Origin: a virus
Taxonomy: Duplodnaviria; Caudoviricetes
Direction: 5' to 3' (one strand)
IMG/VR virus record: IMGVR_UViG_3300038557_000055
Location: 1 to 60,193 of that record
Length of the DNA stretch: 60,193 nt
Shown here in pieces: positions 4,966 to 41,840 of the stretch. Made by a program: the position numbers and the translations under genes. Every line of letters begins with the position of its first letter. The stretch's first letter is position 1. A model generated the notes under the pieces. That model saw only the letters and a list, made by a program, of their open reading frames with translations, had not been told where the DNA came from and did not search any database.

Positions 4966-4994
4966 ATTATGCAAAGTGGATAAATGAGTGTCAA
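4966..4994 (-). promoter_or_regulatory. Leftward early promoter (PL-like)
   Basis: Minus strand TTGACA-17 nt-CATAAT, overlapped by operator-like sites at 4969-4981 and 4994-5006. Confidence 0.8.
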
Positions 4995-5044
4995 TACACA
5001 ATGGATATAATTATCCGTAACGTTGACAACGAAACGGATAGGGC

Positions 5045-5087
5045 AGAAAAGAAGAAACCCCGCACGTCCTGCAAGACGTCGGGGTTT
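5045..5087 (-). terminator. Intrinsic terminator for leftward transcripts from the immunity region
   Basis: Minus strand AAACCCCG..CGGGGTTT stem followed by CTTCTTTTC. Confidence 0.65.
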
Positions 5088-5164
5088 GACTGGATGGAAT
5101 TTGGTTTGGCGACCAGAAATCCAGTGGACTGTTGATAGCAGAATCCACCTGATTTCTCAAGCTT

Positions 5165-5440
5165 TTCCGACATTTCCAGGCAGTTTGCGGTGAGATCCGG
5201 TGCAACTCCGGGCAGGTTTAGCCGCAGGCGCGGGTGTCGAAAGTCCTACCGTGCTGCCTGAAAGAGAGGACCGACTCGCCGAGAGGGAGTCGTTGCTTGT
5301 GTCCCATCCCGGCTCCGGCCTTCAGGACATGGCAATGGGCACTCCGTCCTCTTTGGCTATGCCATAGGGGAGGGGGTGTCTGTTGCCTGGAACCCTCCCT
5401 CTCCATCCTTCAGAAACTTTCGAATGAAGAGATGGAGATA
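5165..5440 (+). ncRNA. Candidate structured non-coding RNA
   Basis: Many nested helices with G-U pairs valid only on + strand; no convincing ORF. Confidence 0.45.
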
Positions 5441-5447
5441 GAAGCCG

Positions 5448-5717
5448 TTAGGATTGGTCTCTAGCCATGGTTGCAATGAATTCTACGAATTTCTCACGAT
5501 CGGACGGTTCAAGCTTTTGCATCATCGGCCATATCGCTGCTGCGAGGCGCTGGGTTGGCTCGTTGAAGGTAGCCTCCAGCCGTTCGTGGATCTCGCCATT
5601 CATGGTGTTGCCGGTGCCCTTGCGTGACTCGAGCAACAGCTCCTTCAGGTCTGGCGACATATTGAAGTTGTGGCGTTCGCGTCTCTGTGGCGCGGAATTT
5701 GTCGGCTTCGGCAGCAT
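5448..5717 (-). CDS. Arc-like ribbon-helix-helix DNA-binding protein
   Basis: FNMSPDLKELL.ES.K..GNTMNGEIHERLEATF matches the Arc/Mnt pattern. Confidence 0.75.
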   Translation of the reverse strand: MLPKPTNSAPQRRERHNFNMSPDLKELLLESRKGTGNTMNGEIHERLEATFNEPTQRLAAAIWPMMQKLEPSDREKFVEFIATMARDQS

Positions 5718-5883
5718 GATGTGCCGATTTATGGATGATAGGTTGACGCTTCGAAATGGTGCAAAAAATCAACGAAACTGTGCATACTGGGCAGTCGTGG
5801 CGCGGGGGCGCTTAAAGAGGTGCCGCCGCGAATTGCCTGACGCTACAGTGCATCAAAGGCGCGTCCGACAGGTGTTGGTTCGC

Positions 5884-6633
5884 ATGATGCTTGATCTCCA
5901 TGCCCTGGTGACTTCGCAGGAGCGTCCAACGGAAGAGATGATCGTGGCGCTGGCAATTCGGCTTGGCCAGTACGAGGGCAAGGCCCTGGATGCCTACCAG
6001 ATCGCCAAGATTACCACGCTGCCGAGAACATCGGTGCTGCGCTACTTGAACACGATGCGGATTCGGGGCCGCATATCCCAAGCTCGCATCGGGCGTCGCA
6101 ACGTCTACTACATCAAGTCGACGTCACCCGAGATAGATGCCTTCTTCGCAGATGCGGAAACCGTCGTTCGCAATGCAGCGCGGACGTTGACCAAAATGGA
6201 CTATACACCAAGTCTAACGCTCGGTAGCAATTCGTTAGCTGGCACTGAAATACGAGGCGGCGCTTCTTGGGGAGCGCCGTTCAGGCCAGCGAGTAGGCAA
6301 TCACAAGGTCAGGAACTGTTCGGCGCTGGCGTCCTTCAGGGGCGCGTCATCGGACGTGCAAGCGGCAGGGGAAGTGCGTTGGAAATGCAGGGAGGATTGG
6401 CCGATTGGGCCAAGTTACAGGGTTTGATCGAAGCTCACCGTATGCTGATTCAGCAGCTTCAGCACGCTGGCGAGATGGCGGAGATCGACGGCGCTTTGAA
6501 CAAGATACTGGATTTCAAACCGTATTCTCCGGAAGCTCGCCGCGAGCGGGCCGTCTACCTGGTTGAATTGATGGAAGAGGGTGATGAGTTGCAGGCTCCG
6601 CAATTCAAGCGGCTGCTCAGGTCGATGATATAA
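5884..6633 (+). CDS. Putative winged-HTH protein (start uncertain; may be two modules)
   Basis: LDAYQIAKITTLPRTSVLRYLNTM..RGRI HTH; upstream part of the 388-aa ORF overlaps Arc antisense. Confidence 0.5.
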   Translation: MMLDLHALVTSQERPTEEMIVALAIRLGQYEGKALDAYQIAKITTLPRTSVLRYLNTMRIRGRISQARIGRRNVYYIKSTSPEIDAFFADAETVVRNAARTLTKMDYTPSLTLGSNSLAGTEIRGGASWGAPFRPASRQSQGQELFGAGVLQGRVIGRASGRGSALEMQGGLADWAKLQGLIEAHRMLIQQLQHAGEMAEIDGALNKILDFKPYSPEARRERAVYLVELMEEGDELQAPQFKRLLRSMI

Positions 6634-6978
6634 TCAGTTATCGGATAGATACCGGTCGCGGAATTTTCGGTTAGCCTCGATCTCGGCGCCGTGCTTGCGA
6701 TATGCCACTGATGATGAAGCCGCTGGTGGAGACGGTCGTGCAGGGGTCTCCGAAGACTTCTGCATCTGCTGCAGGACGTAGTTCGCGAGGCCGATCAAAG
6801 CTACCAAGGCGAGCACCATCAGAGCCACCCCTTCGGTAGAAAGGTTCATTGCCGTGATGGCCCATACGGCTGAGCCTACGGCAATGACAGTGCCGAGGAT
6901 CCTGCCGATCGCTCCGATGACGATCGACGATCCGAAGAGCAGGATGGCCACGATGAGAAGAAGCAGGAAGACAGCCAT
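6634..6978 (-). CDS. Small membrane protein downstream of cI (lysogeny-expressed candidate)
   Basis: 2-3 hydrophobic segments; overlaps the cI stop. Confidence 0.7.
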   Translation of the reverse strand: MAVFLLLLIVAILLFGSSIVIGAIGRILGTVIAVGSAVWAITAMNLSTEGVALMVLALVALIGLANYVLQQMQKSSETPARPSPPAASSSVAYRKHGAEIEANRKFRDRYLSDN

Positions 6979-7682
6979 CACATCACCGAGAACCGGCCTT
7001 TAACCCGGCCGATGATGAAAGCTTCCTCTACCGTTGCCTCATATGGTGAGTAAGACGGGTTGCGGCTGCTCAATCGGATGCGGACCGGGTCAGACTTCGG
7101 AACGATTTCAACGAGCTTAACCACCAAGCCGGTGCCGTCAAACACCAGAAACGGGCCGGGAGGTGACGGCCGCCGGTCCCGAGTATCGCAGATTACGCGA
7201 TCCCCAGAAAACAACGAACCTGGTGCATGTGGATTTGTCGGGTCGTATCCCGAGTCGCCAGACACTTCGATTATCCAAGCCGCAGACGGTTCGGTGTGAA
7301 GCACGCCGCGCAAGAATGAGTCTGGAACGCTCCAGACGTCCCGGACCGCATCGGCGTCCACCGAATATCCGTTCTGGGTATGGGTGATCATCTCGCCCAG
7401 GCCGCCGCCGCCGGCACCGGCGCGGGCGTCGACCTCACGAATGACTCGAGATGACTTTTGAGCGTCATCAGCGTCGATGCCAAGGATCAGCCATTCCGGC
7501 CGAACCTTATATTTTCTGGCATATCGAACAGCATCATCGTTGCTGAAATCGCGGGTGCCATTTTCGTGGTGGTAATAGGACGGGCGAGGCACGCCGAGTG
7601 CATCCGCTGCGTCTCCCGGCGTCTTATAGCCGGCGTTGATACGAGCCTTCTTCAGGCGTTCCGGTTTATCCGCTGTGTTCAT
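6978..7682 (-). CDS. cI: CI-like repressor (XRE HTH + S24 peptidase)
   Basis: RLKKARINAG..AADALGV...YYHHENG HTH; Ala-Gly site; VSGDS and VVK catalytic Ser/Lys; divergent from Cro-like gene. Confidence 0.92.
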   Translation of the reverse strand: MNTADKPERLKKARINAGYKTPGDAADALGVPRPSYYHHENGTRDFSNDDAVRYARKYKVRPEWLILGIDADDAQKSSRVIREVDARAGAGGGGLGEMITHTQNGYSVDADAVRDVWSVPDSFLRGVLHTEPSAAWIIEVSGDSGYDPTNPHAPGSLFSGDRVICDTRDRRPSPPGPFLVFDGTGLVVKLVEIVPKSDPVRIRLSSRNPSYSPYEATVEEAFIIGRVKGRFSVM

Positions 7683-7708
7683 AGCGGCGGACAATCGCAA
7701 ATTTCCGT

Positions 7709-7765
7709 ATCCGATGTGGGTTGACATCTAATAATCCCTTCTGCATATGATTATACAGAACGGAT
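7709..7765 (+). promoter_or_regulatory. PR-like promoter with three operator-like sites
   Basis: TTGACA 7721-7726, 17 nt, CATATG; ATCCGATGTGGGT 7709, ATCCCTTCTGCAT 7734, ATACAGAACGGAT 7753. Confidence 0.75.
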
Positions 7766-11548: not shown

Positions 11549-12139
11549 ATGACCGACATGCCAGCACCGATGTCCTATCTCACTATGGATCCCGGTCGAA
11601 AGATGGGGTGGGCGCACTGTCTCGCCGGTGGCGAAGAGCTTCGATACGGCACTTGGAAATTCGCCCAAGAATTGCCGGGCGCTGCATACTCGGCTTTCCT
11701 GGCCAATCTGAAGAGCAAGATGGACATCCTGCCCGATGTCCAGATCGGCCTAGAGCTGATGACGATCGTCGGCCACGAGGACGCCAAGGGCCGGACTAAC
11801 ATCGACGCTCAACAGGTCGAGTTCTCGGCCGGCTGGCCAACTCACGCCAAGACGCTTTGCTTCCGGATGGATCGTCGACCGCCGGAGATGATCGCCATCT
11901 CGGCCTGGAGATCGAAGACCCACGGAAAGACTCGAGCACCCGACCACATCCAGAAGGGGGCGGACAAGCGGAAGTGGCTGAAGCAGAAGGCGATCGACTA
12001 CTGCCACGCTCAGGGATGGAGCCCATCCAACGATGAAGAGGCCGAATCTCTCTGCATGCTCGTCTACATGCGCATGCTCTTCGAGCCAGGATTCGCTTTC
12101 GAGCGTGGCTACGCCTTCAAGCAAGAGGCGTTGCTCTGA
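11549..12139 (+). CDS. RuvC-like (RNase H fold) resolvase
   Basis: LTMDPG..MGWA, central E, AWRSK, NDEEAES. Confidence 0.7.
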   Translation: MTDMPAPMSYLTMDPGRKMGWAHCLAGGEELRYGTWKFAQELPGAAYSAFLANLKSKMDILPDVQIGLELMTIVGHEDAKGRTNIDAQQVEFSAGWPTHAKTLCFRMDRRPPEMIAISAWRSKTHGKTRAPDHIQKGADKRKWLKQKAIDYCHAQGWSPSNDEEAESLCMLVYMRMLFEPGFAFERGYAFKQEALL

Positions 12140-13248
12140 TGCGCTTTACCGACGACTTTCTCAACGACCTTCGCGACCGGATCACGATCTCCGATGTCAT
12201 CGGGTCGCGGGTGACGTGGGACAACAAGAAGACCAAGCGGGCGCGCGGGGACTGGTGGGCATGCTGCCCGATGCACGGGGAAAGTAGCCCGTCGTTCCAT
12301 TGCGAAGATAAGAAGGGCCGCTATCACTGCTTCGGTTGCGGCGCTTCCGGTGATCACTTCCGGTTCTTTATGGATTTGGACGGGGTCAGTTTCCCTCGCG
12401 CTGTGGAGCTGGTTGCGGACCTTGCCGGCGTAAGTCTCCCAACCCAGCGAGAAGAAACACCCCAAGAGCGGGCCGAGCGCGAACGGCGCCAGCAGCTACG
12501 GGAACAGCGCAAGGCCGATCAGGATCGGCAAGCCGAACGGGACGCCGAGCGCAAGGCGGACACGGTCAAGGATATCTGGTCACAGGGCAAGCCGATCGCT
12601 GGAACGCTGGCCGAGGCATATCTGCTCAGCCGCGGGCTGCCTAGGATGGAATGGCCAGCGAGCCTCCGGTTTCATCCCCGCGTTCGATACACGCTCGATA
12701 GCCCCTTCGATTTCAACTGCCGGTATTTCCCAGCTCTGATCTGCGGTGTTCAAGCCTCGAACCGCAAGCTCATGGCTATCTGGCAAATCTTCCTCGATCC
12801 GGCCGGCGGCAAGGCGAGGGTCAGACCCGGAGAGTCGGCCAAACTCGGGTTTGGTCCGGCAGCTGGAGGGGCTGTTCGCCTCGGCCCAGCAGCTGAAGAG
12901 ATCGACACCTGCGAGGGTGTCGAGACGGGCTTCGGTGTTGGCAATCTCAATGGTTGGAAGCGTCCCGTCTGGCCGCTGCTGTCCACGTCCGGAATGATCG
13001 GGTTCATCCCTCCACCCGGCGTCAAGCGCATCCACAATTGGTCGGATGGCGATCGCCACCGCTTCACACCGACGGGCTCCGTCATGGGGCCGCCTGGTCG
13101 AGAAGCTGCCAAGAAGCTGAAGACCAACATGGCTCGGCTCGGCATCGAGGTCATCAATCACGAACCACCAGAAGGGTCCGACTGGTTGGATGTCTGGAAT
13201 TCACTGCGAGAAGAAAATGAGCGGCAACGGTCAGTCCAATATCTCTAA
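12139..13248 (+). CDS. Phage primase (CHC2 zinc finger + Toprim)
   Basis: CCPMHGESSPSF..YHCFGCGASGD; AEAYL..RG; CEGVET; DGD; DWLD. Confidence 0.92.
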   Translation: MRFTDDFLNDLRDRITISDVIGSRVTWDNKKTKRARGDWWACCPMHGESSPSFHCEDKKGRYHCFGCGASGDHFRFFMDLDGVSFPRAVELVADLAGVSLPTQREETPQERAERERRQQLREQRKADQDRQAERDAERKADTVKDIWSQGKPIAGTLAEAYLLSRGLPRMEWPASLRFHPRVRYTLDSPFDFNCRYFPALICGVQASNRKLMAIWQIFLDPAGGKARVRPGESAKLGFGPAAGGAVRLGPAAEEIDTCEGVETGFGVGNLNGWKRPVWPLLSTSGMIGFIPPPGVKRIHNWSDGDRHRFTPTGSVMGPPGREAAKKLKTNMARLGIEVINHEPPEGSDWLDVWNSLREENERQRSVQYL

Positions 13249-14674
13249 CGTCCAGGCCGAGAAGGAAGTGCTTGGCGCGATCCTGCTCGCCGAAGCCAAC
13301 TTCTGGGAGGTCTCCGACATCCTCGAGCCGGCGTGCTTCAGCACGAAGGATCATCAAGCGATCTACCGCGCCATGTCCGACCTCGCCAAGGAGGATCGCT
13401 CTATCCGGACAACGGCAGTGGCAAACAGAGTAGGGGCCTTCACGGATGGTTCCGAGCCGACGCCGTACCTCTCGGCCCTGATCCATCTCGCCAAGCAGGC
13501 CAGCGCCGACGGAGCGATCCCGCTCGAGGAGTACGCCGATGATATCGCGCGGTCATTCTCGAAGCGCCAGATCAAGGCGCTGGCCGAGCGGATGGCGAAA
13601 GAGGCGGATAATCCCACCTCTGACCCTCTGGCGATCCTAGATGCCGCCCTGACCGATGCATCGGATCTCGTCCGATCCACCGACCGAGTGGTCGAGCGCA
13701 GCATCCCTCAAGTCGGTGCCGACGTGAAAAGCCTTCTGCAGGACGCCGTGACGAGCCAGGGCATAGGCATTGGCACGAGCTTGATCACCGTCGACGAGAT
13801 CATTGGAGGCCTGTTCCCAGGCGATTTCGTTCTCCTCGGTGGGGAACCCGGCGGCGGCAAGACATCCCTTGCGATGCAGATCGCGATGCATGTCAGCCAG
13901 AAGGAGCATGTTGGCTTCATCGAGCTGGAGATGGAGAACAGGATGCTCCTTCTTCGCGTAATCGCGGGACAGACGGGCATCTCGGTGCGCCAGATGATGG
14001 GGGGTGTGAACGACGACCAGCTCGAGAAGATATCGAACTCCATCCAGCAGCTCGGCAATCACAAGCTGTCGATGATCGCCAGCCACCGCATGTCGATTGC
14101 CCAGATCGAAGCGCGTGCCAGGTCGATGAAGCGCAAGAACAAGATGAAGCTGCTCATCATCGATCATCTCGGCTTGATCAAACGGCCCGGCAAGTACCGG
14201 ATCCAGAAGCACGAGAAGGACTTCGAAAACGCCGAGCAGTTGATGGAGCTCGGGAAAGCACTCGGTGTGCCAATCATCTGCCTGTGCCACCTCACAAAGG
14301 CGGGCCGACAGAAGGACGGCGACCCATCTCCTACGATGGAGGATTTCAGCGGCGGCGGTATGGAGCAGCACGCCGACCTGATGCTCTGCACCTTCAATCG
14401 TCACCAATGGCTGGAGAAGAACCCGCCGACAGCGGCCAAAGGCGCGGTCAAGCAGAAATGGGACGAGGACATCCTGATGAGCAAGAACCGGATCGAGCTC
14501 TACAAGCTCAAGGACCGCAAGGGACCGATGCGAGAGCGGGTGATCCTGCATTGGGACGGTCGGCGCACGCGGTTTCAAGACCTCGGCAGCGTTCAGACCG
14601 AACTCATCAAAGGTGGTGGCAACATTCCGCCTGCATTCGAAGGCTTCGACTTCGGAGGACTAGCCCATGCGTAA
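13217..14674 (+). CDS. DnaB-like replicative helicase
   Basis: AEKEVLGAIL N-domain; GEPGGGKT; LEM; IIDHLGLI; MEQHAD; K.R.GP. Confidence 0.93.
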   Translation: MSGNGQSNISNVQAEKEVLGAILLAEANFWEVSDILEPACFSTKDHQAIYRAMSDLAKEDRSIRTTAVANRVGAFTDGSEPTPYLSALIHLAKQASADGAIPLEEYADDIARSFSKRQIKALAERMAKEADNPTSDPLAILDAALTDASDLVRSTDRVVERSIPQVGADVKSLLQDAVTSQGIGIGTSLITVDEIIGGLFPGDFVLLGGEPGGGKTSLAMQIAMHVSQKEHVGFIELEMENRMLLLRVIAGQTGISVRQMMGGVNDDQLEKISNSIQQLGNHKLSMIASHRMSIAQIEARARSMKRKNKMKLLIIDHLGLIKRPGKYRIQKHEKDFENAEQLMELGKALGVPIICLCHLTKAGRQKDGDPSPTMEDFSGGGMEQHADLMLCTFNRHQWLEKNPPTAAKGAVKQKWDEDILMSKNRIELYKLKDRKGPMRERVILHWDGRRTRFQDLGSVQTELIKGGGNIPPAFEGFDFGGLAHA

Positions 14675-24655: not shown

Positions 24656-24737
24656 CGCCGCCATCCTCCCAATCGAAACCACCTCAACCTTGTTCCTGCG
24701 ATGGAACGAGGTTGGCCGAACACATCCGGAGATATCC

Positions 24738-25673
24738 ATGTTCCACGACGTCAAGATCATCGAGAGCGCCGAAGACAACGTCAGCAAGTACGTCTTCACC
24801 GGCGACAACGCCGTCGCCGAGGCGGTGCTCTACCGGTATCCGGACTATGCGACCCGGACTGTCATTTGCTGCTCGACGATGAGCGGATGTCCCGTCGGTT
24901 GTCGCTTCTGTGGCGCTGGCGACCACTTCGTTCGAAGCTTCTCTGGCGATGAGATCGTTGCCCAGGTTGATCGATGCATCGCAGATACGGGCGTCGATCC
25001 GGCCAAGATGAAGCGGCTGCAGATCATGTTCATGTCGATGGGCGAGCCGTTGCTCAACCCAAGGGGCATGCAGGATGCTCTTCGAGCGCTCTATGCCAAA
25101 TACCCCAACGCAGCGCTGCTGATCAGCACGATCGGTCCAGACGTCGACTACGATTGGGTGAGAGATATCAGTGTCGAGATCCCAACGGTCGGTCTTCAGT
25201 TCTCGGTACACAAGTCCAGCGATGCCGAACGCGACATGCTCATTCCGTTTCGGAAGAAGCTTCCACTGAATTTCATCGCTTACGAAGGTCAGGAGTGGTC
25301 GAAGGAGACGGGGCGGAAGCCGTTCTTCAACTATTGTGCCGGAGATGACAATTCTTCAGTCATCGACGCCGACCGGCTTCGCGAGCGGTTCGATCCCGCG
25401 ATCTGGAATGCAACGGTCAGCGTGATCTGCGAGCGCAATGAGGGCCTACCGGCCAAAAACGAGCACCAGATCAAGCTCGCTGCCGATTTCGCATCGCTGC
25501 TCGTCGAACGAGGCTTCGATGTTCGCGTGTTCGATCCTGCCGGCCAGGACGACATCGGCGGCGGATGCGGCCAGCTCTGGTTTGTCCAGCAGTGGATGCG
25601 AGACCATCCCGAGCTTGCTCATCCCAGCATCGGGCATGGGTTGCCGAGCGTCCACACTCCGGCCGTAGCGTGA
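24738..25673 (+). CDS. RlmN/Cfr-like class A radical SAM methyltransferase
   Basis: ICCSTMSGCPVGCRFC, MSMGEPLLN, ISTIG, FSVH, DDIGGGCGQL; GGAGA RBS. Confidence 0.92.
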   Translation: MFHDVKIIESAEDNVSKYVFTGDNAVAEAVLYRYPDYATRTVICCSTMSGCPVGCRFCGAGDHFVRSFSGDEIVAQVDRCIADTGVDPAKMKRLQIMFMSMGEPLLNPRGMQDALRALYAKYPNAALLISTIGPDVDYDWVRDISVEIPTVGLQFSVHKSSDAERDMLIPFRKKLPLNFIAYEGQEWSKETGRKPFFNYCAGDDNSSVIDADRLRERFDPAIWNATVSVICERNEGLPAKNEHQIKLAADFASLLVERGFDVRVFDPAGQDDIGGGCGQLWFVQQWMRDHPELAHPSIGHGLPSVHTPAVA

Positions 25674-30449: not shown

Positions 30450-30803
30450 ATGAGCAGCGATCGCATTCCGTGCTGCGTGCCGTTCTGCCGGCGCACCCGC
30501 CGAGATGATGGAAGCTTCTCGGAATGGATTTGTGGAAAGCATTGGGCACTGGTCAGCCGCAAGGCTAAGCTGATGAAGCGCCGTAGCGAGGCAGCATACG
30601 ACGCCGCGAAGCTGGAATGTGAAGAGATATCGAGCGAAGGCGATGAGTTCGCCAGGACGCAAGGCGGCGGCATTGCCGTCTCGCAAGAGATCATCGACCG
30701 CCTTCGGGTGGCTGCCGCCAAGCACCAAAGGAAGTGGGCTCAGGCCGGTCGGGCATGGGATCGATGCAAGCGTCAAGCGATCGAGCGGTCAGGGGGCATC
30801 TGA
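30450..30803 (+). CDS. Hypothetical Cys/His protein
   Basis: CCVPFCRRT...ICGKHW. Confidence 0.65.
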   Translation: MSSDRIPCCVPFCRRTRRDDGSFSEWICGKHWALVSRKAKLMKRRSEAAYDAAKLECEEISSEGDEFARTQGGGIAVSQEIIDRLRVAAAKHQRKWAQAGRAWDRCKRQAIERSGGI

Positions 30804-31087
30804 TGCGAGACCTATTCGGCCCGGTTCCTCGCAAGCCGCCGCTCATTCGGATGCGAGCCATGGACCATGGATCCGCGCCGGGACTAATGCCCGGATGGAA
30901 AACGACGAATGGCGCTCACTTCCGGTGCTGGCGCTGCAATCATGATGCCGGCTGGCATTTCAACATGAGCGATGGCGAAGTCCGTCGCGGCATTCCATGC
31001 CCTGTCTGCAACGGCGCTCCGACCGAGCCTAGTTTAACCGAACCAAGTTCTCGACACTCGGGTCGAAAGCCTTCAGCCACCGGTTGA
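30803..31087 (+). CDS. Small zinc-ribbon protein
   Basis: CWRC...CPVC; TGATG coupling. Confidence 0.6.
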   Translation: MRDLFGPVPRKPPLIRMRAMDHGSAPGLMPGWKTTNGAHFRCWRCNHDAGWHFNMSDGEVRRGIPCPVCNGAPTEPSLTEPSSRHSGRKPSATG

Positions 31088-31382
31088 TTTTGCCCATCGT
31101 TTCGAACGGAGGAGGGGACATCAGCCTGGTGTCCTCGGCCTTCCGCCATCCATCACCGACTATGCCGCAGATTGGGATGGCCATGAACTGGTCGACCGAG
31201 CGCGGCAGCCCATCGGTCACAAACCGAAACTCATAGTCCGGAAAACGCTTCCCCATGTGGACGCGCAGCCGGTCGACCACAGCCTCATCGTCGTAACGCG
31301 GATCAATAGGCAGAACGACGATGAACTGGCTCGCCTCGACCTGTCCGAGCCGGGTTTTCTTCGTGACGGCGACAATACTCAT
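31029..31382 (-). CDS. Hypothetical protein, LexA-boxed
   Basis: GGAGG RBS; MSIVAVTKK. Confidence 0.65.
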   Translation of the reverse strand: MSIVAVTKKTRLGQVEASQFIVVLPIDPRYDDEAVVDRLRVHMGKRFPDYEFRFVTDGLPRSVDQFMAIPICGIVGDGWRKAEDTRLMSPPPFETMGKINRWLKAFDPSVENLVRLN

Positions 31383-31403
31383 AACTGCAATGCCTCCAGC
31401 TTT

Positions 31404-31418
31404 GTTCTTTTTCTGTTC
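31404..31418 (-). promoter_or_regulatory. Alphaproteobacterial LexA box
   Basis: GTTC-TTTTTCT-GTTC (GAAC-N7-GAAC on coding strand) just upstream of the RBS. Confidence 0.75.
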
Positions 31419-31551
31419 TCGTTTTACAACGAAGGAAAAATCGAGTCCAGAGGCACGAATCACAGCTTTTGTGAACGATGTTTTGCGATTGTCTTCAAAT
31501 AGATAACGGTCAACAATGGTGAACGGTTTGTTTTGAGGTGTTCGCTCATTG

Positions 31552-31580
31552 TTGACGATCTCTGAATTTTCGCGCAACTT
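31552..31580 (+). promoter_or_regulatory. Candidate late-operon promoter
   Basis: TTGACG-17 nt-CAACTT (weak -10) downstream of an AT-rich stretch. Confidence 0.35.
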
Positions 31581-31649
31581 GCATGCGACTCGGGGCAGTG
31601 CGCCCAGAGGAAACTTCGCCAATCTCCGCACTCCACCCTCAATGCCGGC

Positions 31650-31882
31650 TAGAGGTTCATAGCTGCTGCTCGCTCCTGAGAAGAGCCCGCGCGGGGAGGC
31701 GGTGGCGGGTAGCTAGTCCCTCCCTGTCGTCGTCAAGGATAAGCGGGAAAGCTGCGGCGCCGGTAAATCATCAGTTCGGACGGCAGCCTGGAAAGACGAA
31801 GACAGGTAACGCTATGATCCAGCGCGCCGAGCTGGGGAGCCGCCAAGGTGAGCAGCGGGAGTTGGACGCCCCGCCCGTCCGT
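31650..31882 (+). ncRNA. Candidate pseudoknotted RNA element at the head of the late operon
   Basis: Crossing helices plus several hairpins with G-U pairs valid on + strand. Confidence 0.55.
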
Positions 31883-31884
31883 GA

Positions 31885-32349
31885 ATGACAATACCATCCT
31901 TTCGAAGGCTGACAGCCCCGCGTCTTGGCGGCGATCGGGTCCGCACCCATGAAGCGCCGCGAGGCACACGACACCAGCGCGGCTATGACGCGGAATGGGT
32001 AGAGCTGCGCGACGAGTACCGCCGGCAGATCAAGGGCAGGTGCGAGGAATGCGCCCGGCGGGGCTATTTCAAGCACTGCGACGTGATCGACCACATCATT
32101 CCGGTCACGGATGCACCTGATCTGAGGTTGAAGCGGGAGAACCTGCAAGGGCTTTGCCACAGCCATCACAACGGCTGGAAACGGCTGATGGAAGCCTATG
32201 CCAGGAAGAGCGGCGCCACGTCGCTGCTGATTCAATGGTGCAGGCATCCCGAAACACGGCCGAGGCAGTTCCAGATTGTGAAATTCGGTCCGCTCAAGGA
32301 TCTTCTCGATGCAGACCAAAGAGAAGACCGAGCAGTCGGCGACGAATGA
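31885..32349 (+). CDS. Terminase-associated HNH endonuclease (HK97 gp74-like)
   Basis: RGYDAEW..LR, CEEC, DHIIP, NLQGLCHSHHN; adjacent to terS. Confidence 0.9.
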   Translation: MTIPSFRRLTAPRLGGDRVRTHEAPRGTRHQRGYDAEWVELRDEYRRQIKGRCEECARRGYFKHCDVIDHIIPVTDAPDLRLKRENLQGLCHSHHNGWKRLMEAYARKSGATSLLIQWCRHPETRPRQFQIVKFGPLKDLLDADQREDRAVGDE

Positions 32350-32713
32350 GGGTGGAGCGGTTCATTTCCTGCCTTCGTTCGAGGAAATTCCGCCGTCGAA
32401 CATCCCGCTCCTCGAGTCCGGGAACAAGGTCTATCAGGAGTGGTGCCGGACCCTCATAAAGTCCGGTCTCCTCACGCTGAAGACCCGCGAATACGTCGAG
32501 ATGCTGGCCATCGCGACGGACGACATCGCCTACGCGATCGAAAAGGGTAAGCGCCCGACGCGACAGGCGATGGAAGCCAAGCGCGCCGCGATGATGAAGC
32601 TGGAAAAGCTCGATGCCAACCAGTCCATCGTCACGCCGGCCGGCGGTGAGCAAGCTTATTCAGCGTTTGGGTTCGCGCGACGAGCTCGAAACCGGCGCCA
32701 CGGTAAAAATTGA
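32309..32713 (+). CDS. Terminase small subunit (putative)
   Basis: Position between HNH and TerL; helical P27-like composition. Confidence 0.7.
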   Translation: MQTKEKTEQSATNEGGAVHFLPSFEEIPPSNIPLLESGNKVYQEWCRTLIKSGLLTLKTREYVEMLAIATDDIAYAIEKGKRPTRQAMEAKRAAMMKLEKLDANQSIVTPAGGEQAYSAFGFARRARNRRHGKN

Positions 32714-34436
32714 GGACAAGGAGTACCCCGATTACGTCGGTATCGGCGTCGCCTATGCCGAACTGATCGCCAATGAGCAGATTCCGGCCTGCCGGTATCT
32801 CATCATGGCGGCCAAGCGGTTTTTGGCGATGTACGCCGAGGCCAAGGCCGGCGCGGGCGACATCTACTGGTCCGACGAGCACGCCATCGAGCCGTGCGCC
32901 TTCATCGAGACGCTGACCCACGTCAAAGGCGTCCTGGCGAAGGAGAAGATCCGGCTCGAAGCGTGGCAAATCTGGGTCGTTGTCGCGATCTACGGTTTTC
33001 GCTGGACCGACACGGGCGATCGCGTCGTCAACATTGCCCAGCTCGAGATCACTCGAAAGCAGGGCAAGTCGCTTCTGGCCGCCGGCATCGCGCTCTACGA
33101 GCTCGGCCCGAACGCCTACATCGGCGACGACCTCTACATCATCGCTCCCACCGCGGCCCTGGCACAGAAGGTGCTGGAGCCGATGAAGAAGATGGTGGAG
33201 TACAACCCGTCTCTGAAGGAGCATTACGGCATCGTCGCTCTGAACGAGCGGATCGATGTAGCCCAAACCGAGAGCTACGCGACGATCCTGTCCTCATCGG
33301 GCAAGAAACAGGATGGTCACGACCCAAAGGTGGTGATCGCGGACGAATTCCACTCGCTGCCGGCGTCGATCTTCAACGTCATGAAGTCATCGCAAGGCGC
33401 TCGGCCGGAGAGCTTGTTCCTCGAGATCGGATCGGCGGGGTACAACGCCTTCGGTGTGGGCTGGGACGAGCGAAACCTCGGCATAGAGGTCTTGGAGGGC
33501 AAGCGCAGCCGGCCGGAGCTGTTCGTAGCGCTCTGGACCATCGATCCGGAGGATCACGGCAACTGGCGCAGCGAGCGCGTCATCCGGAAGTGCAACCCGA
33601 ATTTCGGCATCTCGACCCCGAAGCGGAAGGTTCTTCAGGAAGTCGAGGAAATCTACACAAATCCGCGGAACAAGAACGAGACTCTGCGCACCAGGTTCAA
33701 CATCTGGGGTCTTGGCGAGAGCCGGATCATTTCAGCGGACCAGTGGGCCTCTTGTGAGCTGAAGGGCATCACGCGGAAGGACTTCAAGGGCGATTCCTGC
33801 TGGATCGGCGTGGATCTTGCGACCCGAAACGACATGGTTTGCTGGGTTGCGGAGTTCGAGCTCGACGATTTCGTCGTTTTCTTCGCAAAACACTATGTTC
33901 CGGAGCATGGACCTTGGCGTGATGACGAAGAGGTCCGCGATATCTACCAGAAATGGCACGAAGACGGGATTTTGACCTTCACGCCCGGCTCGTTCCACAC
34001 CTACACGGAAATTGAGGCTGATCTGCTCGATCTCTGCGACTTCCACAAGGTCGAGATGATCGCGATCGACGACCGTGAAGCCAACGCCATGATGGGCGCC
34101 CTGGCGAAAAAGGGGAAGCCGGTCGTTTCGTTCCGGAAGAACGCCACGAACTACTCTGAGCCGTGCAAGGACATCATCGCCCGGGCGGTGGGGAAGTCGA
34201 AGGGGCTGGCCCACGACGGCAACGAGGTCTTGGCCTGGAACGTCGAGAACGTGATTGGCGGCTTCAATACCGCCGAGCTCATCCTTCCGAAGAAGGTCAC
34301 TGAGCACTCGCCGATGAAGATCGACGGGTTCGACGGCATGTGCATGGCTCACGCCTGCTACATGCAGCAAGTCGACCCGAAGAAAGTCATGAAGCCCCAG
34401 CCGATGATTGCTCGCGGCATGCGCGTGTTGGACTGA
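32613..34436 (+). CDS. terL: Terminase large subunit (start uncertain)
   Basis: LEAWQ, ITRKQGKS Walker A, IADEFH Walker B, GVDLA, KIDGFD. Confidence 0.96.
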   Translation: MPTSPSSRRPAVSKLIQRLGSRDELETGATVKIEDKEYPDYVGIGVAYAELIANEQIPACRYLIMAAKRFLAMYAEAKAGAGDIYWSDEHAIEPCAFIETLTHVKGVLAKEKIRLEAWQIWVVVAIYGFRWTDTGDRVVNIAQLEITRKQGKSLLAAGIALYELGPNAYIGDDLYIIAPTAALAQKVLEPMKKMVEYNPSLKEHYGIVALNERIDVAQTESYATILSSSGKKQDGHDPKVVIADEFHSLPASIFNVMKSSQGARPESLFLEIGSAGYNAFGVGWDERNLGIEVLEGKRSRPELFVALWTIDPEDHGNWRSERVIRKCNPNFGISTPKRKVLQEVEEIYTNPRNKNETLRTRFNIWGLGESRIISADQWASCELKGITRKDFKGDSCWIGVDLATRNDMVCWVAEFELDDFVVFFAKHYVPEHGPWRDDEEVRDIYQKWHEDGILTFTPGSFHTYTEIEADLLDLCDFHKVEMIAIDDREANAMMGALAKKGKPVVSFRKNATNYSEPCKDIIARAVGKSKGLAHDGNEVLAWNVENVIGGFNTAELILPKKVTEHSPMKIDGFDGMCMAHACYMQQVDPKKVMKPQPMIARGMRVLD

Positions 34437-36849: not shown

Positions 36850-36894
36850 CCAATCGGGGCGACCCGATAAACCGATCCGCGAGGATCACAACCG

Positions 36895-36923
36895 AACCCG
36901 CCCTTCGTGGCGGGTTTTTCTTT
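36895..36923 (+). terminator. Intrinsic terminator between protease and capsid genes
   Basis: AACCCGCC-cttcgt-GGCGGGTT followed by TTTCTTT. Confidence 0.7.
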
Positions 36924-41817: not shown

Positions 41818-41840
41818 ACCCGCCGCAAGGCGGGTTTTTT
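41818..41840 (+). terminator. Intrinsic terminator upstream of tail tube gene
   Basis: ACCCGCC-GCAA-GGCGGGT-TTTTT. Confidence 0.75.

Follow-up and report, generated by a model that had tools for sequence, protein, structure and literature searches.

A structured element upstream of the packaging genes

We examined a 60,193-base IMG/VR provirus record (IMGVR_UViG_3300038557_000055), here called the window, and in particular a stretch at positions 31650-31882 in which a preliminary description, made from the letters alone, had seen an RNA-like element that heads the late operon and is read from the + strand. The stretch lies within a 502-nt gap that separates a minus-strand open reading frame (ORF), whose start is most likely at 31382, from an HNH endonuclease gene (31885..32349, +; matches to PF01844 and phrog_144). 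This gene is the first one after the element and is followed by terS (from 32309), TerL (32613-34436) and the portal gene. Its start at 31885 is confirmed by the N-terminus MTIPSFRR, which is kept in many of 27 aligned homologues. We find that positions 31625..31773 (+) very probably represent one member of a real family of structured RNAs, of which we collected 15 distinct sequences from IMG/VR phage contigs, and we consider how such an RNA might act on the late transcript.

The gap itself is AT-rich over its first 180 nt (GC content 0.39-0.47) and genome-like from about 31560. Codon-position GC across the flagged stretch is flat (0.64/0.60/0.69), compared with 0.39-0.46 at position 2 in real genes of this window, and the stretch is non-coding. 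An ORF at 31583-31888 (101 aa), which overlaps the HNH start by ATGA, is probably no gene, given its flat codon-position GC and the absence of a family match.

An apparently uncatalogued RNA family

A blastn search of the gap against the DNA around 95 HNH relatives returned nothing significant, and the first relatives were found by reading the DNA upstream of HNH homologues. The four closest of these (HNH identity 57-63%) share with the window a block that starts about 20 nt before the flagged stretch, ends at 31763 and runs from ...GAU(N)CCGGCUA... via GCUCG and GGGG to AAGC(N)G(N)G(N)CGCCGG. The family was extended by three pattern scans of viral contigs, the matches being sorted with a covariance model, R1. 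The first scan yielded 34 stretches, 10 of which were judged by reading to be true members; 13 of 53 passed R1 at E<=1e-13 in the second, and the third contributed 11 of 44 that passed, four of them new. The window element matches R1 over its full length (31625..31773, +; 97.6 bits, E 3e-23) and aligns with the 14 other distinct sequences. Four members outside the R1 training set (L003, L370, L355 and L358) score 60.8-99.4 bits. The core, from P1 to P1', spans 31645-31763 in the window and 84-119 nt across members, and exactly one copy is present in each of the 14 records searched whole.

Searches beyond viral contigs added nothing to this set. Three true members were recognized by reading among the at least 119 matches listed in a metagenome pattern scan, all of them duplicates of viral contigs, and blastn of three members against INPHARED (50,697 phage records) gave no match except one 26-nt chance hit. 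A lone 27-bit R1 match in 151 genomes of one order (L304) lacks P1b and part of P1 and was not counted. The five pattern matches in 401 genomes of one class are due to chance, since the reversed control gave 31.

As the preliminary description had anticipated, no known RNA family accounts for the element. Rfam 15 at the gathering score gave no match anywhere in the window; when 31350-32000 was searched at E values up to 10, only two minus-strand chance hits appeared (mir-360 and GHRLOS), and ARAGORN found no tRNA or tmRNA. The family is apparently uncatalogued, with no match in Rfam or INPHARED, and may stand undescribed among the 8,495 candidate structured RNAs reported from IMG/VR, many of which lie upstream of HNH or terminase genes (PMC10690425). 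One of those candidates, DNAVirus_7673, has a similar mix of downstream genes, but by its description it is a human-gut Ruminococcus motif and thus another family.

A predicted nested fold with compensatory changes

The predicted fold is an irregular rod that consists of an invariant P1, a P1b of 3 bp, a P2 of 5 bp, an asymmetric junction, a P3 of 5 bp, an internal loop and a variable P4. RNAalifold, applied to MAFFT alignments that were not fitted to any structure, returned the same nested helices whether 11 or 15 sequences were used. Of the 18 pairs predicted from the smaller set, five carried a compensatory change. From the larger set, 21 pairs were predicted and nine of them carried one, in four nested helices plus the variable apical hairpin, whose stem was partly recovered. 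In the model-fitted alignment, 98.1% of 268 cells pair, compared to 90.6 +/- 1.0% in shuffles, and 21 cells are changed on both sides where 6.5 are expected; neither value was reached in any of 500 shuffles, and slid controls gave 30-62% pairing. Since the model-fitted alignment is biased in favour of structure and the shuffles do not account for relatedness, the result from MAFFT is the more independent of the two. G-U pairs make up 26 of the 268 paired cells and would be A-C if read on the other strand. The fold therefore belongs to the + strand, which is the sense of the late genes.

At the base of the rod, the P1 5' strand CCGGC (31645..31649, +) faces GCCGG at 31759-31763, its 5' side being invariant in all 15 members. 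The P1b 5' strand GCU (31662-64, +) pairs with 31756-58, the middle pair being C-G in 11 members and U-A in four. P2 (31667-70, +, with 31750-54) has 5 bp and, in the window, a one-base bulge; at its second pair, 10 members have C-G and three have U-A. In P3, CCCGC (31686..31690, +) pairs with GCGGG (31743-31747). Four of its five pairs show compensatory change, as in AUCGG/CCGGU (L007), UCUGG/CCAGG (L009) and UCAGC/GCUGG (L003). All four 3' strands are contained in 31743..31763 (+; P3 31743-47, P2 31750-54, P1b 31756-58, P1 31759-63), together with a conserved GRAAGC.

Between P2 and P3 lies the conserved asymmetric junction (31671..31685, +; consensus CG.UCCUNRGAAGA), which holds CUGAGAA at 31676-82. 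This loop had been singled out in the preliminary description for its likeness to a T-loop, and it proves to be a conserved motif: by reading, 13 of 15 members carry a YUNRGAA-like sequence. The junction forms a short clean hairpin in L003, L007 and L008, with a similar loop in L003 (CUAGGAA) and L008 (UUCGGAA). All 15 members have U[GAUC][AG]GA in the loop, and a closing stem of at least 3 bp is limited to the window, L003, L007 and L008. These five bases fit the U-N-N-R-A turn of the T-loop consensus, in which the turn is closed by a stem.

The apical part (31691..31742, +) is composed of a conserved GCGGGG (31691-96), the variable hairpin P4 (31698-31709/31723-31734) and a 3' tail. P4 corresponds to a 12-bp helix that had already been noted for its G-U content: GGCGGTGGCGGG (31698-709) and CCTGTCGTCGTC (31723-34) form 12 pairs, five of them G-U. 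All 12 members folded have an apical hairpin here; the sequences are unrelated, and the stems run without interruption for about 4 to 12 bp. In the window, an unconstrained fold favours GCGGGGAGG/CCUCCCUGU, so that the exact P4 pairing is ambiguous. The internal loop below P4 has GCGGGG on its 5' side and, in about half of the members, UCAUUG on its 3' side. A candidate alternative or pseudoknot helix, CUCG/CGGG, just after the P3 5' strand is compensated in L008 (CUCAC/GUGGG) and interrupted by an A-C mismatch in L003. Core lengths span all three classes modulo 3 and some members, L007 for example, have stops in all three + frames; the conservation is therefore not that of a peptide.

A proposed long-range pseudoknot

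The preliminary description had placed the fold elsewhere, reading the whole of 31650-31882, up to the HNH start, as a single 230-nt pseudoknotted RNA, which would here be a structure specific to this phage. We consider this very improbable. The complementary strings are all found where they were said to be: GGTTCATAGC (31654-63) pairs with GCTATGATCC (31811-20) at nine of 10 positions, with one T-T mismatch, and TGCTGCTCGC (31664-73) forms 10 pairs with GTGAGCAGCG (31848-57), including two G-U, extendable to 12 (31663-74/31847-58). Both long-range helices exist and they cross. Long helices are also somewhat enriched, as three uninterrupted helices of at least 10 bp are present compared to 0.68 +/- 0.79 in 300 dinucleotide shuffles, six of which reach three, and the downstream complement of the 5' segment is stronger than in 95 of 100 shuffles. 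However, several of the long helices are different registers of triplet-repeat-like runs (GCTGCTGCT versus GGCGGTGGCGG), which largely explains the excess, and the longest helix, of 12 bp, is matched in 24 of the 300 shuffles. Folding energy gives no support. The minimum free energy of 31640-31890 (+) is -99.8 kcal/mol, whereas shuffles average -101.1 (z +0.27), 109 of 200 being at least as stable, and the z values are +0.73 for the minus strand, 0.17 for the core 31645-31763 and -0.42 for the 3' half, 31764-31884.

The 5' strands of the pseudoknot are bases of the covarying P1b and P2, whose partners lie at 31750-58, and the proposed 3' partners (31811-20 and 31847-58) fall in a segment that is unconserved. 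Only 31625-31773 is kept elsewhere, and in L008 the HNH start codon directly abuts the element. A strong downstream complement of the 5' segment occurs in just three of 15 members (the window, L370 and L113). Because the strands are used by P1b and P2, the partners are unconserved and without folding signal, and the complement is strong in so few members, we conclude that the pseudoknot is chance complementarity. Homologue covariation, which had been proposed as a check, is found for the 5' half (core 31645-31763); the 3' half has no counterpart in any relative.

That 3' half, a 121-nt lineage-specific spacer from the element to the HNH start (31764..31884, +), holds the pseudoknot 3' partners and three further hairpins of the preliminary description, none of them conserved. 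Its best blastn match over 1.45 Mb of collected loci has an E value of 0.43, and it is a gap in the alignment of the relatives. An additional hairpin, AGC-GGGAAA-GCT, is incompatible with P3 and P2. A suggested kinship with an element at 5.2 kb did not hold up either: R1 matches nothing at 5253-5269, so this is not a second copy of the family. The motif there occurs once, in the gap between ORFs 4991-5173 (-) and 5467-6633 (+), and matches with up to three mismatches are expected in 21 of 100 shuffles.

Genomic contexts of the element

In every carrier the element lies on the sense strand of the downstream late genes, but the identity of these genes varies. HNH is the next gene in the window and in L008, and in L003, L007 and L009 the element is 0.8-1.9 kb upstream of HNH with other genes between. 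A phrog_606 TerS plus TerL lie downstream in L108, L113 and L126 (group D); in L119, small ORFs precede a phrog_51 TerS and TerL. A 178-aa ORF and a Walker-A ORF that resembles TerL follow in L358 (by reading), and in L110 the downstream gene encodes a helix-turn-helix (HTH) protein ahead of scaffold genes. In L103 and L120 the element is located between head and neck genes, and in L370 and L355 it lies between head-side and neck/tail-side genes, judged from the reading of ORFs only. A phrog_302 virion protein with Neck1 is a further type of downstream neighbour. The element directly follows an ORF in L103, L120, L007, L370 and L355. In the first three of these it fills the gap between two ORFs and so cannot be an independent gene that carries a promoter and a terminator of its own.

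At least two terminase types are found among the carriers (phrog_9/HNH and phrog_979). In an all-against-all BLASTP comparison of 10 carrier records at E 1e-5, a threshold at which more distant homologues are missed, no protein cluster spanned more than five records, and the five-record set is the HNH group. Given the lack of a common phage protein and the varied downstream genes, gene-specific feedback or a dedicated phage partner is unlikely. This applies equally to the partnership with HNH or terminase that had been considered previously. The target of the element should instead be a host component or the RNA itself.

The site directly after the element is an insertion hot spot in the HNH-group phages. 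The insert of L003 (1690-2453) consists of a 90-aa ORF and a SieB-like gene on the other strand, that of L007 (1122-2528) is a 468-aa minus-strand ORF, and that of L009 (741-2504) carries cytidylyltransferase, cysteine-dioxygenase-like and DAHP/KDO8P-synthase-like genes on the sense strand. We read 31764-31884 as a probable spacer at the point where the relatives carry such inserted cargo genes.

Promoter-like sites and terminators

Upstream of the element, the gap contains what is probably a regulated late promoter (31471-31580). Two direct copies of GTGAACG (31471-77 and 31519-25, +) lie in its AT-rich part and look like operator sites; copies of GTGAACG/CGTTCAC are found at the matching place in L008 and L003. 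They are followed by a promoter-like site recognized by reading, TTGACG-17-CAACTT (31552..31580, +), whose spacer contains a motif, ATTTTC, common to the relatives. Similar layouts, preceded by repeated motifs of the GTGAACG type, are seen in L008 (TTGACA-17-ATGCTC), L003 (TTGACA-17-ATCCTC) and L009 (TTGATC-17-GATTAG). The window site is absent from a consensus promoter scan because of its poor -10, a weakness that suggests dependence on an activator. Transcription could then start about 58 nt before P1. Sites that read like promoters precede the element by 58-135 nt in five members: the window, L008, L003, L009 and L358.

Downstream, the preliminary description had reported terminators inside the late operon, and these are indeed present and strong. 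A strong intrinsic-terminator-like hairpin is located at 36894..36917 (+), 5.1 kb after the element, and a second one at 41818..41835 (+), 10 kb after it. A similar hairpin (GACCCGCC...GGCGGGTT plus a T run) follows the element by 5.0-7.4 kb in L003, L007, L008 and L009. Strong sense-strand terminators at this distance are thus found in five of five HNH-group records, with a second at 10-13.5 kb in three. No Q-type antiterminator was recognized among the 40 ORFs scanned with Pfam, in agreement with the earlier impression. In L119, a NusG-like gene (PF02357, E 2e-11; phrog_6386, 'transcription antiterminator'; L284 1571-2110) lies directly upstream of the element, which shows that at least one phage has elongation control at this same genomic position.

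In group D and in L358, terminator-like hairpins with U-rich tails were also seen just upstream of the element, at about 2422-2445 in L294, about 45-55 nt before P1 in L271 and L266, and about 35 nt before P1 in L380. In L294, a TTGACT-17-TATTGA site precedes the hairpin. The element itself does not resemble an intrinsic terminator or attenuator: no U run is present in the window, and among the 12 members folded only L008 has one (UGUUUU directly after P4). U-rich stretches occur near P4 in L370 and L355.

Possible functions of the element

We infer that the late mRNA includes the element, in one copy per phage, and that it is located between the region of the late promoter and the first gene for packaging or else is flanked by two structural genes. 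Since the genes that follow it vary and its carriers have no phage protein in common, it more probably than otherwise works in cis on the late transcript, either alone or by way of a host component. It is possible that it modifies the elongating RNA polymerase and thereby allows read-through of the terminators inside the late operon, as the put RNA of phage HK022 does. Factor-independent antitermination of this kind would be the most likely single mechanism, ahead of processing or self-cleavage, although taken alone we still rate it as unlikely. The combined account, a structured family that acts in cis on the late transcript with antitermination as its likeliest mode, is tentative and has in our estimate somewhat less than an even chance of being right, and it is the best explanation we can offer.

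The put RNAs (putL and putR) are among the closest parallels. Put is described as a cis-acting RNA of about 70 nt in the phage transcript, formed by two side-by-side stem-loops in a V shape, with stem I containing a triplex; putR is found about 270 nt beyond its own promoter, and put RNAs act without a dedicated protein on terminators at least 10 kb away (PMC9378689). To set beside this, the window has, by reading, a site resembling a promoter 58 nt before the element and terminator-like hairpins at +5.1 and +10.0 kb, and the carriers have no phage protein in common. Put serves the early operons of a lambdoid coliphage, whereas the element is found in late operons and is intercistronic in some phages. 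We saw no sequence likeness between the two; the target of put is the beta' zinc-binding domain.

Several observations weigh against antitermination, or against the strength of the structural case on which it builds. Put consists of two stem-loops in about 70 nt, while the element is a single nested rod, P1-P1b-P2-P3-P4, of 84-119 nt. Terminators inside late operons are common in phages generally, so that their presence here lends little weight, and in group D (L108, L113, L126) and L358 the element is preceded, at 35-55 nt, by a hairpin that resembles a terminator. Such a hairpin is transcribed before the element, which therefore cannot aid its read-through. The NusG-like gene is present in only one of 11 records. 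Four members have the element in mid-operon, a position that fits a processing or stability site as well as it fits antitermination. As for the fold, the compensatory changes come from few independent lineages, about seven groups, whose relatedness the shuffles do not take into account; neither 31640-31890 nor the core folds better than shuffled sequence; and P1 never covaries and has one C-U mismatch (L358), so that it is best regarded as a putative helix. Finally, the family is rare, with no member found by blastn in 50,697 phage records, by R1 in the 151 genomes or by the pattern in the 401 genomes sampled.

The intercistronic members are at least as well explained by an RNA processing or stability element, or by a self-cleaving ribozyme, in which case cleavage at the element, by a host RNase or by the RNA itself, would divide the late mRNA into segments that differ in lifetime, and the folded remnant would shield the message on either side. 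The element fills gaps between ORFs in L103, L120, L370, L355 and L007, it sits at module boundaries such as those of early and packaging genes or of head and neck genes, and no phage protein partner is common to its carriers. Its rod shape, in which the internal loops are conserved and about 30 unpaired bases highly so, is also usual for catalytic or specifically recognized RNAs. Nonetheless, no Rfam ribozyme family matches even at E values up to 10 and no cleavage site can be named, and while computation cannot separate this explanation from antitermination, we regard it as rather unlikely, somewhat more so than antitermination. The RNase III processing hairpins of phage T7 are likewise intercistronic rods with internal loops, but they are shorter and recognized mainly by shape, whereas the present family keeps about 30 specific bases across unrelated phages. 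Conserved junction bases within covarying stems could also be those of an aptamer, and the element might control the next gene as a riboswitch or at the level of translation, for instance by hiding a ribosome-binding site in P1. The P1 3' strand runs into GGAG(G) 6-10 nt before an ATG in L103, L120 and L003, and in L008 a GTG start follows P1 directly. Yet the spacing between P1 and the next start codon varies from 0 to 121 nt, the genes that follow bear no relation to one another, and no Rfam riboswitch matches. There is also no conserved terminator or anti-sequence after the element, with a strong downstream complement in three of 15 members and a U run after P4 in L008 only. Such a role is improbable in our judgment.

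A site in DNA, such as a cos or pac site for terminase or the binding site of a late activator, would account for the fact that most members lie just upstream of packaging genes and for P1 as an invariant short inverted repeat. However, pairing is kept by compensatory changes in three helices, and G-U pairs make the two strands unequal. L103 and L120 carry the element between head and neck genes and L370 and L355 among structural-looking ORFs, so that four members lie between structural genes, far from terminase. With at least two terminase types among the carriers, a shared recognition site is unlikely, and we give a DNA-level site as little credence as the 230-nt pseudoknot.

Other systems of processive antitermination resemble the element in being large or structured RNAs inside or at the head of long operons. 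The EAR RNA is a structured operon RNA that gives processive antitermination. LoaP, a NusG paralogue, reportedly uses leader hairpins for the same purpose. The conAn RNA element of conjugative plasmids is described as acting in long operons by processive antitermination (PMC8191782). It needs the adjacent ConAn1 protein, whereas the element has no common adjacent protein in the 10 carrier records. A bipartite system of the conAn or LoaP type is not apparent among the carriers, with PF02357 in one of 11 records and no protein cluster in more than five of 10. In addition, the hosts of conAn2, EAR and LoaP are Gram-positive. Lambda Q and its qut site occupy the same position: the regulatory genes lie on one side and, on the other, an operon that begins with packaging genes and contains terminators. 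Lambda Q is a protein that acts at a DNA site with a promoter-proximal pause, in contrast to the RNA fold that is the conserved feature here.

Control of late genes outside the lambda Q paradigm is poorly understood, and the carriers have no recognizable Q yet contain strong terminators in their late operons. The folded RNA is nearly unchanged across phages with unrelated packaging and structural genes, which points to a target in the host or to the RNA itself, and either would make the element a portable control module. It is conceivable, if doubtful, that we are dealing with a new class of protein-independent RNA that moves as a module among unrelated phages and either confers put-like resistance of RNA polymerase to termination or represents a new class of self-cleaving ribozyme. 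An antiterminator of this kind would be a rare factor-independent one and, if it follows the put principle, a second and structurally unrelated example. A ribozyme or processing site would explain a separation of head and tail gene doses. In either case, the element is compact, at about 100 nt, and its defined helices and compensatory mutants make it amenable to direct test; it also marks the adjacent downstream site as a cargo-gene hot spot of these phages.

Additional features of the window

HNH and terS overlap by 41 nt (32309-32349), similar to the overlap in relatives (for example 35 nt in L003), which leaves no space between them for a cos site. The HNH protein alone recovered no relative when searched against viral contigs, and the upstream minus-strand ORF gave a single match of 12 residues in the same contigs. 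The nearest relative seen is P0013, a 91-aa HNH fragment from a 59.6-kb assembly contig that is 91% identical to the HNH protein of the window. For TerL, the nearest counterpart from a cultured phage is only about 30% identical. Upstream of the gap, two small overlapping + ORFs (30450-30803 and 30734-31087) contain cysteine pairs (CCVPFC...CGKHW and CWRC...CPVC); they have no family match above threshold and could be candidate zinc-finger late regulators. Most other early ORFs of the window are without a Pfam match. Among those that could be assigned are a CI-like repressor with HTH_3 and Peptidase_S24 domains (6978-7727, -; Pfam), a primase and a DnaB-like helicase (12139-14674, +) and a radical-SAM protein (24690-25673, +).

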